From Eubacteriales bacterium (GTDB lineage Bacteria; Bacillota; Clostridia; Oscillospirales; CAG-272), in NCBI GenBank assembly GCA_045636605.1, contig JAZTXV010000014.1:44557-108556 (forward strand): a stretch of 64,000 bases of DNA, written 5' to 3'. The notes under the pieces are model-generated. The model made no database searches. It saw only the letters and a program-made list of their open reading frames with translations, and had not been told where the DNA came from. The position numbers and the translations under genes were made by a program. This document shows positions 4,240 to 11,591 of the stretch, piece by piece (the stretch's first letter is position 1; every line of letters begins with the position of its first letter).

Positions 4240-6029
4240 TGGCAGATAAAAAAGAAAAGGTAAAGCTTTCTCGGGCTATAAAAAATAATACCTTTATTAT
4301 TAAAACGGTATTTAAAAGCGCTCCCGGTCTTTGCATTATGCGAATGATTATGGGCATTGTCACGGGCTTAAATCACGGTGTTACCATATACCTAATAAGC
4401 GAAATTCTTAATGCCCTCGACAGAGGCGACAGCTTCGAGAGAATACTTTGGACAATAGTGACAATGGCGGCATATATGCTCGCATATCAGCTGTTCTATT
4501 CGTGGCATTGGAAGATATATAACCCCAAACGCAAGCTTAATTTCATAAGAGAGCTGCACAAGCGCTTCTTCGTCAAGGCGGCGGAGATTGACCTTGCGTG
4601 CTACGATACCCCCGAGTTCTATAACGATTTCATTTACTCAATGCAGAACTGCGACAAGAGTATAATGAATACCCTCGATATGTTCTCGGATATTTTACGA
4701 TGTTTGTTTGCCTCGATTTCCGTCTTTGGAGTGGTGGCAACGGTTGACCCTGTGATTGCATTTGTGATTTTGGGCTTCTCGGTCGTGGCGATGGTAATCA
4801 ACATTCTTGAAAACTCAATTTGGTACAAGTACGAGATAGTATTTAATGCGATTTGGCGCAAGGATTGGTATTTTCAACGCTTTTTCTCGCTTGCCGAGTT
4901 TGCAAAGGAAATCCGTCTTACAAGAGTTGCCGAGAATATGAAAAACGAGTTCGAGCGCAACAAGACGGAGGACAGAAGACTGACAATAAAGCAGCAAAAG
5001 GAGCTTTTAGGGCTTCAAGCGCTCTATTCCTTCCTTCACATCGCCGAGGACATTTTTATAATTCTGTTTATGGCGTATCACCTGATGGTCACAAAAAATG
5101 TGCTTGTCGGAGGCTTTGCAATAGCGCTTACCGCATCGTACAAGATAAGAGGTATGTTTAGCGAAATTCAATGGCGACTTGCCGAAATGAACAAAAACTC
5201 CCTCTTTGCCGATAAGGTTCGACGCTTTTTGCAAACCAAGAGCAAAATTATCTCGGGCGAAAGAGAGCTTGACGCCTTTGAGAGCATTGAATTTAGGAAT
5301 GTAGGCTTTGCATATGGAGATACCAAGGTGCTCGACGGCGTTAGCTTCAAGGTTGAAGCAGGACAGAGAATTGCATTTGTCGGCTACAACGGTGCGGGAA
5401 AAACAACTGTAACAAAGCTTATTATGCGTCTTTACGATGTGAGCGAGGGCGAGATTTTGATAAACGGAATAAACATCAAGGAATATCGCCTTGATATGCT
5501 CCGCCAAAAAATCGGCGCAGTGTTCCAGGACTATAAGGTTTTTGCCGCAACGGTTGCCGAAAACGTCTTGGCGGACATCTATACACCCGATATGGAGGGC
5601 ACAGTGCTCAGAGCGCTGGAGGACAGCACCTTTGGCGACAAGCTCGGAGAACTGCCAAACGGTATATTCACAGAGCTCACCCGTGAATTTTCAAACGAGG
5701 GCACGGAGCTTAGCGGAGGCGAGAGCCAAAAAATTGCGATTGCCCGTGTGTTTGCGCACAATAACGAGCTTGTTATAATGGATGAGCCGTCAAGTGCGCT
5801 TGATCCAATAGCGGAGTACAACCTCAACGTCGGCATTGACAAAAACGCAAGGGGCAAAACCGTCATATTTATTACTCACCGTCTTTCAACCACAAGACAC
5901 GTGGACAGAATTTATATGTTTGAAAACGGCAAAATTATCGAAAGCGGCTCGCACGATGAGCTTATAGCGTCGGGCGGCAAATATTCGCAGATGTTCAATC
6001 TTCAGGCAGAAAAATATAAGCTCATATAA
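4239..6029 (+). CDS. ABC exporter, fused permease/ATPase subunit 2
   Basis: Walker A GYNGAGKT, LSGGE, VIMDEP; stop/start overlap with subunit 1 suggests a heterodimer. Confidence 0.92.
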   Translation: MADKKEKVKLSRAIKNNTFIIKTVFKSAPGLCIMRMIMGIVTGLNHGVTIYLISEILNALDRGDSFERILWTIVTMAAYMLAYQLFYSWHWKIYNPKRKLNFIRELHKRFFVKAAEIDLACYDTPEFYNDFIYSMQNCDKSIMNTLDMFSDILRCLFASISVFGVVATVDPVIAFVILGFSVVAMVINILENSIWYKYEIVFNAIWRKDWYFQRFFSLAEFAKEIRLTRVAENMKNEFERNKTEDRRLTIKQQKELLGLQALYSFLHIAEDIFIILFMAYHLMVTKNVLVGGFAIALTASYKIRGMFSEIQWRLAEMNKNSLFADKVRRFLQTKSKIISGERELDAFESIEFRNVGFAYGDTKVLDGVSFKVEAGQRIAFVGYNGAGKTTVTKLIMRLYDVSEGEILINGINIKEYRLDMLRQKIGAVFQDYKVFAATVAENVLADIYTPDMEGTVLRALEDSTFGDKLGELPNGIFTELTREFSNEGTELSGGESQKIAIARVFAHNNELVIMDEPSSALDPIAEYNLNVGIDKNARGKTVIFITHRLSTTRHVDRIYMFENGKIIESGSHDELIASGGKYSQMFNLQAEKYKLI

Positions 6030-6149
6030 TGCTTAAAATCCTATAATTTAGAACATTCCAATTAGCGCTAAATTAAAGCGGGGTGAGCGAAAACGCCCCG
6101 CAAGCATTAACGGGCTTGTGCGATACTGCCAAGACTGCACGAAAAACAA

Positions 6150-6178
6150 AAAATCACCGATTTCAAATCGGTGATTTT
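6150..6178. terminator. Bidirectional intrinsic terminator
   Basis: aaaatcaccgatt-tca-aatcggtgatttt between convergent genes. Confidence 0.8.
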
Positions 6179-6187
6179 CATTTTGTC

Positions 6188-7201
6188 TTATTGATTTTCT
6201 CCGTCGCTCTGGGTGGCAGGGGCAGGATTTTCTTCTCTGGTAACGTGTACCCTGTTGAACTTGCTTGAGTGAGCGCTTGTGCTTGAGTTATCAATTACTG
6301 TATGCATAGTTGACAGAAGCGCAAGCATCTTTGAAAGAGCATACACTCCGATAGCCATAATGAGCAGAAGCTCGGGCTGTGAGTAAGCGGCATATTCTGA
6401 AATTTTTCCGGTGATTTTCGCAAAGGAGATTCCGAGCGGGAAGCTGAGTGTGAGCGCCGCACAGGCGAAAGCAGATATAATATATGCTCTGTGTGATGGC
6501 TTTACAAATTCGAACTCGCCCTCGAAAACGAAGAATGCCGCAATAGCGATGTAGGCGATTGAAACGGTAATCTTTGAAATGTCGGCAAAGTTAAGACCGC
6601 TGAAATATACAGTCATAACTCCGAACAAGCTCCATGCGATAGCGCATACAGAGGAACCGATTTTTGCCCATCTCGAAATGTTGATGGTTGATTTGTGGAT
6701 TTTCTTTGGCAATGCCTGAAAAATGAAATAAATGCAAACGGGAATTGTAAGAATCCACTTTGATGCTCTGAAGAAGAAATAGATTTGAAGGTCTGCCTTC
6801 GTTATGGTGATTATGCACTCATAGATGAAGAATATAAACATCATAATAGCGCAAAGCACCGACGCAAATTGTAAGAACTTGTATTGTCTTTTGATGCGTG
6901 TGATGCCAAGAGTCTGCGTCTTGACCGCTGTGTAAATCGCAAGACCGATAACAGAAGCGATAGTGATAAGAAACAAAATTGTTATAATGTGCGGGAATCT
7001 CAATTTAAGCGGACTACTGTATGTGCACAAATACGAAAATGAAATTGCGCTCATTATCGCAGTAACAAACAGATTTGCAAATATTACAATGAACATTCCC
7101 TTTAGGAAGCGATGGGTTTTTCTCATGCCGATTTCCTTCTCTCGTATATATAATTTTATATAATCTTTTAGTATTCTATCATATATAAAGGACAAAATCA
7201 A
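6188..7201 (-). CDS. Hypothetical multi-pass membrane protein (true start may be the internal MRKTHR Met)
   Basis: 337-aa ORF with many hydrophobic segments; no family recognised. Confidence 0.75.
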   Translation of the reverse strand: MILSFIYDRILKDYIKLYIREKEIGMRKTHRFLKGMFIVIFANLFVTAIMSAISFSYLCTYSSPLKLRFPHIITILFLITIASVIGLAIYTAVKTQTLGITRIKRQYKFLQFASVLCAIMMFIFFIYECIITITKADLQIYFFFRASKWILTIPVCIYFIFQALPKKIHKSTINISRWAKIGSSVCAIAWSLFGVMTVYFSGLNFADISKITVSIAYIAIAAFFVFEGEFEFVKPSHRAYIISAFACAALTLSFPLGISFAKITGKISEYAAYSQPELLLIMAIGVYALSKMLALLSTMHTVIDNSSTSAHSSKFNRVHVTREENPAPATQSDGENQ

Positions 7202-7243
7202 GACATAATTTGCAAAATAAAGAGAAAAGTGAAAAAAACATAC

Positions 7244-7630
7244 TCAGCGCCTCGAAAATTTCTTTTTCATAAAGCGCTCATATACCTTTCTTACGCTCTC
7301 GGCGGTATTTTTGCCGCCTATGTGCAACGCAATCTGCTCCCATTCAAGACCGTTTACACATTTGAGAGAGATAATAAGACGAATAAGCGGATCGTCAATC
7401 GAGGAGATAAAATCCAGAATTTCCCGATAAAGCGCCATACACTCGTCAAGATGCTCCTTGATTTGTTGCTCGAGAGCCTCAATTTCGTCGCAATGATCGC
7501 TTATGCGGACGGGCCCTGTGCGAAAAACGCACACATGGTCGCCCGTTTTCTTAAGAGAATGTAAAACGCCCCTTTTGTACTCTATCTCTTTGTTGAGGGA
7601 GCGAAGACGCTCTAAATCCTTTAAGGTCAT
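7244..7630 (-). CDS. Phage-type RinA/ArpU/DUF1492-like regulator with sigma region-4-like HTH
   Basis: Coiled-coil N-terminus then IDDPLIRLIISLKCVNGLEWEQIA..IGG.NTAESVRK, typical of Firmicute phage late regulators; ATGA overlap with upstream gene. Confidence 0.7.
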   Translation of the reverse strand: MTLKDLERLRSLNKEIEYKRGVLHSLKKTGDHVCVFRTGPVRISDHCDEIEALEQQIKEHLDECMALYREILDFISSIDDPLIRLIISLKCVNGLEWEQIALHIGGKNTAESVRKVYERFMKKKFSRR

Positions 7631-7887
7631 ATAATCCTCTCAATTTCGCAAATGCCGTATTTTTCGATAAGCTCAAACACACTGTCAACATCTAAATACG
7701 CACACAGGTCGCTCAAATCGAAGTCGTTTACACAATCACGGCATAGCACACTCCCTGACGGGAAGGTCACAATTTCCTCACCGGGATTGAGCCGATTCTC
7801 GCACCAAAGACAGTATGTTGATGAGCCCTCGGAGCTTTCCGGACACGAGGACAAGTGACCGAACAATGAATTACAAATATCGCACAT
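7627..7887 (-). CDS. Small Cys-rich (Zn-finger-like) phage-type protein, 86 aa
   Basis: RBS GGAGGT precedes ATG at 7887; motifs CDIC..H...CP, CLWC, CRDC. Confidence 0.7.
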   Translation of the reverse strand: MCDICNSLFGHLSSCPESSEGSSTYCLWCENRLNPGEEIVTFPSGSVLCRDCVNDFDLSDLCAYLDVDSVFELIEKYGICEIERII

Positions 7888-8158
7888 ATAAATACCTCCA
7901 TAGTTAAATTTGCCAAGATATGCCACCCTGTGTGCGATTTTGTCGCAAAACATAAGTGAAATCCTGGGATTTTTCCAAAAACCTTTGATTTGGGCGCATA
8001 GCCCTAAATTGAATAATTGCTAAATGCGCTTGGACGCGGGCGACACATCGAAGGAGAAAACGGCAAAAGCACTATGCCGTTACGTTGTGTCGTAGCTCTT
8101 TACGGGGCTTTTACCGATACGGTGCGGAATATTGTATCGGTTAAGAGGTAAGCAAAAA

Positions 8159-8285
8159 GCAAATTAAAATTGCTTACGCTGACATTATAGCAAATAAAAT
8201 TTGCATTGTCAAACCTCTGATGTGAAAAATGTGCGACATTATTTGCCAAAAAGATATTGACACGGCAAAAATTTTTTGCTATACT
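8159..8285. promoter_or_regulatory. Divergent SigA promoters with three palindromic operators GCAAA-N5-(T/A)TTGC
   Basis: Operators at 8159-8173, 8190-8204, 8265-8279; leftward TTGACA(8212-8207)-17-TATAAT(8189-8184); rightward TTGACA(8257-8262)-17-TATACT(8280-8285). Confidence 0.8.
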
Positions 8286-8349
8286 TAGCTTAAAGAGAAT
8301 AAAATTGATATTCTATTGATATTACCGAATTTATTCTAAGGGGGTAAAT

Positions 8350-8943
8350 ATGCTAAAGCAAAGACTGATATCCGCACGCAAGGGCGCAGGTATGACACAA
8401 CAGGACGTGGCTCAATTCCTCGGAATTCGCCGTCAAACCTATTCCGCATATGAAAGGGGAGTAAGCACACCCGATGCAAATACAATCGCACAGCTCGCAT
8501 CACTTTTTGGAGTAAGCGCAGGAGAGCTCGTTACAGGTGAGACGCCTGCTAACGCTATTCGTGTTCCTGTGTGCGGCAACGTTGCGGCAGGTATTCCCAT
8601 AGATGCAATCGAGGATGTTGAGGAGTATGTCGAGGTTGATGCCTCTCTTGCAAGGGGAGCAACGCTTATAGGACTTAAGGTTAAGGGCAGAAGCATGGAG
8701 CCTCGATTTGCAAACGGCGATACCGTAATCGTTCGATGCCAAAGCACCGTTGATAACGGAGATATTGCTATAGTGCTTGTCGGCGACGAGGCAACAATGA
8801 AAAAGGTTGTAAGATATACCGAGGGCATACGTCTTATGCCAACCAATCCCGCATATGAGCCTACATATTTTTCAAACGAGGAAATAAGAAGCCTGCCCGT
8901 TACAATACTCGGAAAGGTCGTAGAATTGAGGGCTAAAATTTAA
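8350..8943 (+). CDS. CI/LexA-like repressor (XRE HTH + S24 autopeptidase)
   Basis: XRE HTH MTQQDVA...TYSAYERG; cleavage site VAAG; catalytic Ser (GRSMEP) and Lys (ATMKK). Confidence 0.9.
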   Translation: MLKQRLISARKGAGMTQQDVAQFLGIRRQTYSAYERGVSTPDANTIAQLASLFGVSAGELVTGETPANAIRVPVCGNVAAGIPIDAIEDVEEYVEVDASLARGATLIGLKVKGRSMEPRFANGDTVIVRCQSTVDNGDIAIVLVGDEATMKKVVRYTEGIRLMPTNPAYEPTYFSNEEIRSLPVTILGKVVELRAKI

Positions 8944-9022
8944 TATAGCTATTGATTAAATCGTCTTATTGTTGTATAATTGAATGGTAAATTAAAATAC
9001 AAGTCAAAAAGGAGATATAAAG

Positions 9023-9730
9023 ATGCTTGAACAGCTGAGAAAGCAGGTTTACGAGGCAAATATGATGCTCGTAAAATACAATTTGATTACATTCACATGG
9101 GGAAACGTCAGCGGAATTGACAGAGAAAGCGGACTTGTCGTTATCAAGCCCTCAGGTGTTGAATATGATGACCTCACACCCGAAATGCTCGTTGTTGTTG
9201 ACCTTGACGGAAATGTTGTAGAGGGTACATATAAGCCCTCGTCGGATACAGCAACTCACCTTGAGCTTTATAAGGCATACCCCGAAATCGGCGGCGTCAC
9301 TCATACCCACTCGCCTTGGGCAGTAATCTATGCGCAGGCGGGTAGGTCAATCACTCCGTACGGCACAACTCACGCCGACTATTTCGGCACAACCATTCCA
9401 TGTACTCGCAAAATGACCGACGAGGAAATAAAGGGTGAGTACGAAAAGGAAACAGGCACGGTTATTCTCGAGGCTCTAAAGGACATCGGCGCAACCCAAA
9501 TGCACGCAGCGCTCGTTCACTCTCACGGCCCATTCACCTGGGGAGATAATGCCGTTGCATCTGTTGAAGCCGCAGTCGTGCTTGAACAGGTAGCTATGAT
9601 GGCTTATAACACTGAGATGCTTATGCTGAGCGCCTATGGTGAAACAACGAGAATGCAGGAAACGCTTCTTCGCAAGCACTATGACCGCAAGCACGGTCCA
9701 AATGCCTATTACGGACAGGGCAAAAAATAA
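9023..9730 (+). CDS. araD: L-ribulose-5-phosphate 4-epimerase (class II aldolase family)
   Basis: TWGNVS, IKPSG, PSSD, HTHS, HGPF, C-terminal [11 protein letters not shown]. Confidence 0.92.
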
Positions 9731-9922
9731 TCAATTTTTTTAAAAAATGCGCCGTTTTTTGCGTGGTAAAACGAAAAAATTGTGTAAAAAAGATTGATTT
9801 TTCTTGTGGAATATGACAAAAAACAAGAGCCGATTTTGTGCGAATCGTACAAATTCTCGGCTCTTTTTTGCTGCTCTGAAAAATCGAAAGACGAAAAAAT
9901 CTTGAAAATTTTCAAAAAAGTC

Positions 9923-9950
9923 TTGACACAAAATGAAAAGAATGTATAAT
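9923..9950 (+). promoter_or_regulatory. Upstream SigA promoter (possible P1 of S10 operon)
   Basis: TTGACA(9923-9928)-16 bp-TATAAT(9945-9950) preceded by A-tracts. Confidence 0.55.
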
Positions 9951-10182
9951 TTATTTCGCTATATATAAACAAGATATATAATTAAAAGGAAGAAAAACAC
10001 TAAAAATTGACCAAAATCCATTTGTGCAATCATACGAAATTTTCGGCTTTTTTAAGACTTTTTAAGCCTAAAAACAGACTGTATTGAATAAAAACAGGGA
10101 TTTTTTTGTGCAAACTGCACAAAAAATGGCGTTTTTTCTACATTTGACAAAAAGAAAAAATCGAAAAAATTTCAAAAAAATG

Positions 10183-10211
10183 TTGATTTTCCTATATATA
10201 TATGATAAAAT
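10183..10211 (+). promoter_or_regulatory. SigA promoter of the S10 operon
   Basis: TTGATT-17 bp-TAAAAT with TG extension and A-rich UP element, immediately before the GC-rich leader. Confidence 0.7.
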
Positions 10212-10214
10212 ATG

Positions 10215-10465
10215 TAGGCTTGATGCGCGAAGAAGCGAGAGGTTGCCGTAGATGTCGCACTGCTAAGGCGTTTGCGGGGAATTTTCGTGGAGCTCATCGG
10301 ATTCACACGGCAGAGAATGTAAAGCCGGGATCTTCCCCTTGGTTAACCCGAGGTGACGCCTGCTTACATTTGTCCGAACCTATGATATGCTGACGGGTTC
10401 GGTTTTGTTAAGCGGGTGATTGAAACACACGGGGCGGTGTAAAGCAAATAGCCCCCGTCAAATTT
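10215..10465 (+). ncRNA. rpsJ (S10) 5' leader RNA
   Basis: GATG..AAGCGAGAGGTTGCCG...CGGGGAATTTTCGTGGAGC resembles the conserved Firmicute rpsJ leader; followed by extra hairpins (ccgaacc/ggttcgg, acgggg/ccccgt). Confidence 0.65.
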
Positions 10466-10489
10466 CTATTTAATAAGGAGGAAAGCAAA

Positions 10490-10801
10490 ATGGCAGTAAA
10501 CGAAAAGATCAGAGTAAGAGTTAAGGGCTACGACCACACATTGGTTGACCTTGCATCTGAAAAGATTGTTGAGGCAGCTAAGAGAAACGGCGCAACGGTA
10601 TCAGGTCCTATTCCACTCCCAACAGAGAAGGAAATAGTAACGATTCTTCGTGCAGTACACAAGTACAAGGACAGCCGTGAGCAGTTCGAGCAGCGCACTC
10701 ACAAGAGACTCATCGAGATCGTTAAGCCTTCAAAGAAGGTAACTGAAGCTCTTATGAGTCTTGAACTTCCTGCAGGCGTTGAAATCGAAATCAAGCTTTA
10801 A
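10490..10801 (+). CDS. rpsJ: 30S ribosomal protein S10
   Basis: GPIPLPT...[11 protein letters not shown]. Confidence 0.98.
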
Positions 10802-10958
10802 TTGATTAAACGTACGGAAGCGAAAAAGCCAAACCCAACTGTACAGTAACGCAAAACCCACTTAGGCGTTATGATGACGGAAGGTCAAGTTGGTGTATCG
10901 GTCGGCTCCGATAAATTCAAGCACCAACCAATAACCTTAAATTAGGAGGAAGCAAAAA

Positions 10959-11591
10959 ATGAAAAAAGCAATCATCGGTAAAAAGCTCGGTATGACACAG
11001 ATCTTCGCTGAGAACGGCGTAGTAGTTCCTGTGACAGTAATCGAGGCTGGTCCTTGCGTGGTAGTTCAAAAGAAGACTACCGAAACAGATGGTTACAATG
11101 CAGTTCAGCTCGGATTTGAGAAGATAGCTGAAAAGCGTGTAAACAAACCACTTCTTGGTCACTTCAAGAAGGCAGGCGTAGAGCCACAGAGATACCTCAA
11201 GGAATTCAAGCTTGAGAATGCAACAGAATTGAATGTAGGCGATGTAATAGCTATCGATACCTTCGCTGCAGGCGACAAGGTCGATGTTTCAGGCGTTACA
11301 AAGGGCCACGGCTACTCAGGCGCAGTAAAGAGATGGGGACATCACATGCTCCAGGCTACTCACGGTGTAGGTCCAATCCACCGTCAGGTAGGTTCAATGG
11401 GAGCTAACTCCACACCATCAAGAGTTTTCAAGAACAAGAAGATGGCAGGTCAGTACGGTAACGAGAATCTTACAGTACTAAATCTAGAAGTAATCAAAGT
11501 TGATGCTGAAAAGAATCTTATCGCAATCAAGGGTGCCGTTCCCGGTGCTCGTGGCGGTATCGTATTCATTCGCAACAGCGTTAAAGCATAA
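10959..11591 (+). CDS. rplC: 50S ribosomal protein L3
   Basis: [10 protein letters not shown]...KGAVPG; operon order. Confidence 0.98.

Follow-up and report, generated by a model that had tools for sequence, protein, structure and literature searches.

A putatively cleavable phage-type repressor and a phage-type late activator lying side by side among host genes raise the question of what such a switch still controls. We addressed this question for a window of 64,000 nucleotides from a Eubacteriales genome of the Oscillospirales lineage CAG-272 (G000; GCA_045636605.1, contig JAZTXV010000014.1, positions 44,557 to 108,556). A preliminary description of the window had proposed a domesticated, DNA damage-responsive module that acts in trans on a distant phage-derived locus. 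Synteny, dN/dS ratios, the lack of att sites and integrase, and a remote cluster that carries a matching box support this proposal. We consider it likely that a domesticated siphophage left behind its control unit in these three genes, and that they form a DNA-damage relay that would induce, in trans, a gene transfer agent (GTA)-like head operon and the host gyrase genes.

The features of the cassette are listed in Table 1. The repressor had been described as an intact XRE and S24 protein, and its matches to HTH_3 and Peptidase_S24 agree with this; the Ala80-Gly81 site and the Ser115 and Lys152 dyad are unchanged in all eight aligned orthologues. Given its N-terminal HTH, Ala-Gly site and Ser/Lys dyad, the protein is predicted to belong to the RecA-cleavable, cI-like S24 class. 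It scores 90.8 bits against the LexA family model, below the cut-off of 110.95, and its DNA-binding domain is HTH_3, not PF01726. The two divergent genes are translationally coupled as first described, the stop codon of the Zn-finger gene overlapping the ATG of the activator gene. Seven Cys and one His of the Cys-rich product are unchanged in 9/9 orthologues. Neither a close viral homologue nor a named family was found for this protein, which falls into unnamed viral clusters of the Atlas with a recognition score under the Atlas threshold. The activator had been called RinA/DUF1492-like; its homology to phage late activators held (PHROG phrog_36, 1e-10), but the family label did not, as no RinA, ArpU or DUF1492/LtrB model of Pfam or NCBIfam matched at E 0.1. 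A fold search returned no match at E 0.001, and the C-terminal part shows a weak likeness to the sigma-4 HTH (E about 1).

The promoters and operators, also reported as intact, are conserved. Both divergent promoters are kept in aligned relatives, and the positions of all three palindromes are kept in eight aligned genomes, with few single-base variants. The predicted hairpin at the 5' end of the leader (8148-8177) shows compensatory changes in 3/8 pairs, and the word GCCCCGT(A/G), found at 8101-8108 in the window, recurs at positions that shift between species; together, hairpin and word could be a protein-binding RNA site. Rfam yielded no match in the cassette, leader included. Beyond the cassette, positions 10221-10317 match the S10-Clostridia ribosomal leader weakly (25.3 bits, under the cut-off of 35.1).

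Table 1. Features of the switch cassette and its flanks (window positions) and of the unlinked head cluster (genome:contig:positions).
Feature	Position	Strand	Description
Host membrane-protein gene, left flank	6188..7201	-	Adjoins the activator side
Activator gene	7244..7630	-	128 aa, Ltr-type (RinA/ArpU superfamily-like) late transcriptional activator; phrog_36
Zn-finger gene	7627..7887	-	86 aa, small phage-type family, translationally coupled to the activator gene
Untranslated leader of Zn-finger/activator operon	7888..8177	-	About 290 nt, with predicted 5' hairpin
Operator-like palindrome O1	8159..8173		GCAA-W7-TTGC, just 3' of the leftward start
Sigma70 promoter for Zn-finger and activator genes	8184..8212	-	TTGACA-17-TATAAT with TG, score 12/12
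Operator-like palindrome O2	8190..8204		GCAA-W7-TTGC, inside the leftward promoter spacer
Sigma70 promoter for repressor	8257..8285	+	TTGACA-17-TATACT, score 11/12
Operator-like palindrome O3	8265..8279		GCAA-W7-TTGC, inside the repressor promoter spacer
cI-like repressor	8350..8943	+	197 aa, XRE HTH (HTH_3) and Peptidase_S24 autoprotease domains
araD-like class II aldolase gene, host, right flank	9023..9730	+	10-79 bp past the repressor stop in 10 genomes
Head cluster	G000:C8:77167-85143		12 genes, between addAB and HAD gene

The flanks are as first stated, and no integrase match was found in the 64-kb window. No tRNA lies within positions 5000-11000, and a search for att-like repeats found that the longest word common to both cassette flanks is 8 nt. 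Pairwise Nei-Gojobori dN/dS was taken from unsaturated pairs only (dS about 1-2), dS being near saturation for many genome pairs; on this basis the medians are 0.05 for the repressor (27/36 pairs), 0.22 for the Zn-finger gene (11/36) and 0.15 for the activator (12/36), beside 0.03 for araD and 0.06 for gyrB as host comparisons. Medians for all 15 phage-derived genes of cassette and head cluster lie at 0.05-0.36. The preliminary description had named att remnants and neutral decay as the marks of a simple prophage scar; we found no att site or integrase, and purifying selection in their place. That the cassette is nevertheless a neutral scar, maintained only for promoters that now drive araD and the membrane gene, would fit the distance of 10-26 bp between the repressor stop and araD in 7/10 genomes, which makes co-transcription likely. 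We regard this as highly improbable, given protein-level purifying selection in all three genes, invariant catalytic residues, conserved operators and a matching remote target.

The cassette is also old. Within the genus it occurs in 11 species: the activator is present in 11 of the 50 genomes searched, and the cassette in 8/36 same-genus relatives of G000. Membrane gene, activator, Zn-finger gene, repressor and araD share one contig in seven of these eight, and in G011 the locus is split across two contigs. At all 21 other membrane-gene loci the cassette is absent and the membrane gene is directly divergent from araD; one such empty site (G009) gives a single weak Zn-finger match. The same three genes adjoin araD in G080, a member of a second genus. 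Four studies provide conspecific contigs, although one run may be the source sample; these contigs cover the cassette in 30, 30, 30 and 25 of the 30 bins, show no joint that skips it, and cover the head cluster as well. A mobile prophage or recent remnant was rejected on the lack of integrase and att sites, the purifying selection and the presence of the cassette throughout these conspecific contigs. In a rooted tree of a single gene, GyrB, nine cassette genomes form one clade, G031 stands apart from it and G080 lies outside the genus, and a single clade of all cassette genomes was rejected (p-AU 0.003). This placement indicates ancestral presence with at least three joint losses in the genus; the switch-gene tree is poorly resolved. 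The cassette genomes being related, co-occurrence with other loci amounts to few independent events.

The suggested search for head clusters without regulators of their own led to another contig, where such a cluster co-occurs with the cassette and carries the box of the activator family. G000 has two terminase loci, a prophage on contig C30 and this cluster on C8. The cluster comprises terS, terL, portal, scaffold, capsid and head-tail adaptor genes, two genes of 109 aa and 117 aa, and genes for Dit, Tal, an XhlA-like protein and a holin; the 117-aa product has the fold of a tail terminator (lambda gpU, E 3e-5). Neither a tail tube nor a tape measure was found in it, nor any integrase, primase or replication genes. 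A TerL orthologue (71-80%) is present in 7/8 cassette relatives, and the remaining one, G022, has a fragment. The 28 other genus relatives have no orthologue, a single partial match (33%) being all that appears among them. In five cassette-less genomes no convincing cluster remnant was found within 1.5 kb of the HAD gene. Gene order is conserved, every contig that extends to the HAD gene has the cluster at this site, and the head-module tree has the topology of the host-gene tree in nine genomes. The TerL catalytic motifs are unchanged in 8/8, and dN/dS of the head genes is 0.08-0.26.

TerS matches only positions 64-128 of 141 of Terminase_2 (61-136 in G110), starting at the oligomerisation region, while in three phage relatives the match begins at position 1; the predicted cluster TerS is a protein without the DNA-binding domain at its N-terminus. 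Small terminases of known GTAs also lack this domain, according to the available part of a published account (PMC11841831). The distance from capsid to Dit is 1.9-2.2 kb in domesticated clusters. Six related phage loci have 5.4-7.6 kb between the two genes, and at most of them a gene of tape-measure size is seen. The cluster, as judged from its genes, is descended from a siphophage. Three local peculiarities were noted. TerS (L051:11168, corresponding to G000:C8:77167) appears to start at ATA, preceded by a ribosome-binding site; in G000, G032, G023 and G008 the stretch from the in-frame stop upstream to the conserved start contains no ATG, GTG or TTG. One conspecific contig lacks a 184-bp repeated element found between terL and portal (L051:12805-12990), and copy number varies at a short tandem repeat that follows addA (L051:10704-10727).

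A predicted activator box links this cluster to the cassette. Upstream of terS, 9/9 genomes carry TTGTCCGTTTTGTCCGTTTT unchanged. A -10 element comes after it, and no -35 consensus is present; the box is a tandem TGTCCG repeat, 11 nt ahead of the -10 element. G000 has only two copies, at terS (G000:C8:77015) and at gyrB (G000:C20:12704), where 0.0007 exact 16-mers would be expected by chance. There is none directly behind the activator gene, and both copies lie on other contigs. Among the 11 activator genomes of the genus, 10 carry two copies of the 14-mer core and G570 one, and the only other copy in the genus is intragenic (G030). The spacing from box to -10 element is 11 nt at 19/19 sites; in phages it is mostly 12 (46/80) or 11 (16/80). 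In G080, a single variant of the box stands at terS and at remB-gyrB, with a weak -10 element behind it.

The same box accompanies the activator family in viruses. In IMG/VR, where many contigs are redundant, an activator-family gene ends within 250 nt upstream of the exact 20-mer on the same strand at 41/80 loci and lies within 1.5 kb at 55/80. Around viral homologues of the activator, a copy with at most four mismatches follows just downstream at 18/46 distinct loci versus 0/92 control windows, and in prophages the homologues precede terminase genes. Ltr proteins bind direct repeats like the one upstream of terS, as described in the part of the source available (PMC3753634). The activator is, on these grounds, very probably a regulator of the head operon and gyrB in trans. 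The box could instead be read by another factor, a host regulator or the activator of a resident prophage, with the cassette co-occurring by shared ancestry: box binding by the cassette activator is a prediction, the genomes are related, and the C30 prophage encodes another RinA-like gene. This complete-looking temperate prophage (G000:C30:57075-90210; L052, L053) holds an integrase, two tandem S24 repressors, and replication, head and tail genes. Its late promoter, however, has a different repeat, on which ground it was rejected as the activator source. The box also tracks the 128-aa gene in two distinct branches within the genus and in another genus, and it lies directly behind the activator family in phages; we consider reading by another factor very improbable.

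Regulation by the cassette activator would extend to a core host gene. The box precedes gyrB in 9/9 cassette genomes and in G091, and in a comparison for which 30 of 60 gyrB loci were fetched, it was found within five mismatches in 0/21 other genomes. G110 has the box at terS and none within 900 nt upstream of gyrB. No terminator was found between remB and the box in nine genomes, so gyrB need not depend on the box, which is probably an added inducible promoter. No report of a phage late-activator box at gyrB was found in the literature searched; if real, this site would show a core host gene brought under the control of a domesticated phage regulator.

The targets suggested earlier included a tailocin, a gene transfer agent and host genes. 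A GTA-like head cluster and a host gene carrying the box were found; the tailocin was rejected, the cluster having head genes and neither a tail tube or sheath nor a tape measure. A capsid and packaging cluster without a tail tube thus points to a GTA-like element. Several genomic features agree: dispersed host loci, no replication or integration genes, vertical inheritance with repeated losses, purifying selection, and a truncated TerS beside an intact TerL. The output of the cluster is in our estimate likely to be a GTA-like packaging particle under DNA-damage control. Among genes for lysis and delivery, holin, Dit and Tal are present. In five genomes of this lineage we found neither a GH25 endolysin nor, in a search that had no positive control, the upper-baseplate homologue of sister clusters, which carry both; no receptor-binding gene was found in the lineage. 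As tube and tape measure are absent too, the genes found do not account for particle release or delivery. G000 has comEC. Whether the predicted particles transfer genes is close to an even call.

These gaps bear on two alternatives. The relay may be real and yet kept in this lineage for its effect on the host, namely more gyrase after damage and/or death through the holin, with a head module that is non-delivering or vanishing. G022 (97% complete) is the case in point, since an in-frame deletion removed most of terL through Dit while the cassette, both boxes, terS, the XhlA-like gene and the holin gene were kept; the missing endolysin, upper baseplate, tube and tape measure fit as well. At the deletion (L067; G022:C1:113000-114500), the TerL N-terminus is fused to the Tal C-terminus. 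However, the cluster is complete in the sister genome G091, so G022 may have lost its head genes recently (dN/dS between the two is 0.02-0.20). Elsewhere, the head genes are under the purifying selection given above with TerL motifs intact, and cassette-less genomes lack the cluster and the gyrB box together. We consider retention for host output alone unlikely.

Alternatively, the tail-less capsids could be helper-dependent, with tail tube or lysis borrowed from a co-induced prophage, a parallel to capsid-forming phage satellites. The missing tube, tape measure and endolysin would be accounted for, and G000 has a candidate helper in its full C30 prophage with S24 repressors of its own. The cluster nevertheless has its own terminator, Dit and Tal, and it is fixed at one site, vertically inherited and without integrase or primase, which makes helper dependence quite improbable.

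We then return to the GTA-like relay and to the signal that would drive it. Scanning GTDB for the capsid with a pattern-based method yielded 41 loci; most carry titles of uncultured Clostridia assemblies, and many come from herbivore guts. TerL is present in 38 of them, 27 being of the domesticated type, defined by a TerL at least 52% identical. Eleven of these 27 clusters, two of them near-identical, have an Ltr box and no SOS box. We scored the other 16 with GAAC-N4-GTTC, which we take to be the LexA-type SOS box consensus: credible boxes, often over a full promoter, occur in 14; of the remaining two clusters, one lacks them and the other offers too little sequence. In four of these genomes a search for the activator found none. 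SOS-wired clusters (L294:6977-7492, with equivalents in L339-L352) have an extra gene of ~160-190 aa between terminator and Dit, a possible tube protein without a PHROG match, which is missing from relay-wired clusters.

The LexA DNA-binding domain was found in 0/9 cassette genomes searched and gave weak matches in 12/28 other genomes of the genus; there is no strong match in 37 genus genomes (best E 5e-7), unlike in most other families of the order. G000 has no LexA over the cut-off and no intergenic SOS box. SOS boxes at sister clusters, together with the lack of a LexA domain in cassette genomes, support DNA damage as the signal and would explain a private relay. The same lack of LexA and SOS boxes, and a repressor as conserved as gyrB, could be taken to mean that the repressor substitutes for LexA over a general SOS regulon. 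Its operator sites nonetheless cluster at the cassette, which holds the genome-wide top three in G000 and 3/3, 3/3, 1/1, 3/5 and 3/6 of the exact sites in five relatives. No operator lies upstream of recA in G000 (the gene at G000:C20:18476, which by eye we take to be recA), and no shared regulon is marked, so that a LexA substitute is scarcely credible. An operator-like site in the gap between a topoisomerase gene and a V-ATPase operon (G000:C6:12917) is likely due to chance; the exact pattern is absent in the closest relative, G032. For the wider group, we tentatively propose, at somewhat less than even confidence, a family-wide GTA of gut Clostridia, derived from a siphophage minus tail tube and tape measure and wired to damage via LexA boxes or, without LexA, via a private cI-to-Ltr relay that also captured the gyrase promoter.

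Related genes occur in other contexts. In another genus (L283, G157:C4), homologues of the Zn-finger and activator genes stand directly before a different head and sheath cluster, an arrangement suggesting that the pair travels with morphogenesis genes. Both there and at L382 (G224:C11), the element sits between host genes, with SOS-box-like sequences ahead of the Zn-finger homologue and terminase, portal and capsid genes after it; the G157 element has a tail sheath gene as well. Solitary Ltr-like genes, surrounded by host genes and found in other genera and families, are likely further domesticated activators (L023, G055:C4; L279, G211; L281, G136; L282, G132; L284, G268; L297, G110), and L023 has a head cluster nearby.

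In the proposed mechanism, the repressor would silence the Zn-finger/activator operon and itself through the three palindromes that lie over the divergent promoters. RecA bound to single-stranded DNA would then trigger self-cleavage at Ala80-Gly81, as in the S24 family, and the released activator would bind the TGTCCG repeat in place of a -35 element. The resulting particle would package host DNA by the headful, without sequence preference. More speculatively, extra gyrase might support late transcription, packaging or repair, and the Zn-finger protein might assist the activator. The circuit as proposed is complete and testable, comprising a sensor, an activator, an exact box and two targets. 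It also supplies a search rule, in that an orphan Ltr gene and its repeat point to a remote target; GTA-like packaging is frequent in gut Clostridia, and few clusters have been identified. The alternation of LexA boxes and relay would represent regulatory rewiring around one conserved output.

We found no description of this system in the literature searched; supplements of PMC12946183, with further packaging events, could bear on its novelty. PBSX of Bacillus subtilis, controlled by an Xre/Xpf cascade, is likewise a defective, damage-inducible Gram-positive element that packages host DNA, both properties being predictions here. It differs in being contiguous, with a contractile killing tail and regulators in cis. 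PrtN and Ltr activators belong to different families. The PrtR/PrtN pyocins nevertheless share the logic of a RecA-cleavable repressor, an activator and a conserved box at a domesticated phage-derived cluster, cleavage being predicted in our case; their product is a tail without a head, whereas ours would be a head without a tube (PMC8609362, as far as its available text goes).

FpGTA of Faecalibacterium resembles our cluster in its gut Clostridia host, head operon, TerS without DNA-binding domain, lack of replication genes and lack of a visible tail (PMC12946183). It is described as podovirus-like with a second baseplate and lysis operon, whereas the present cluster is siphophage-derived, and in the available main text of that paper the words activator and repressor are absent and no regulator is named. 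No Faecalibacterium record is among the 41 capsid relatives of our scan. In the Caulobacter GTA, from a different phylum, the HTH-S24 repressor RogA silences a two-gene activator unit, GafYZ, that induces a remote GTA cluster and other loci, an arrangement predicted here from the genes. In the available description, RogA lacks the catalytic residues that our repressor retains, and GafY is DnaA-domain-like, not Ltr-like (PMC9632790). The Ltr activators of Gram-positive siphophages (RinA, ArpU, LtrA/B/C) are alike in being small activators under cI control with direct repeats upstream of terS (PMC3753634; PMC13123087, as available in part). In those phages the repeats immediately follow the ltr gene, whereas here the gene and its predicted box are on separate contigs, no replication module is left and the host gyrB has a box as well.
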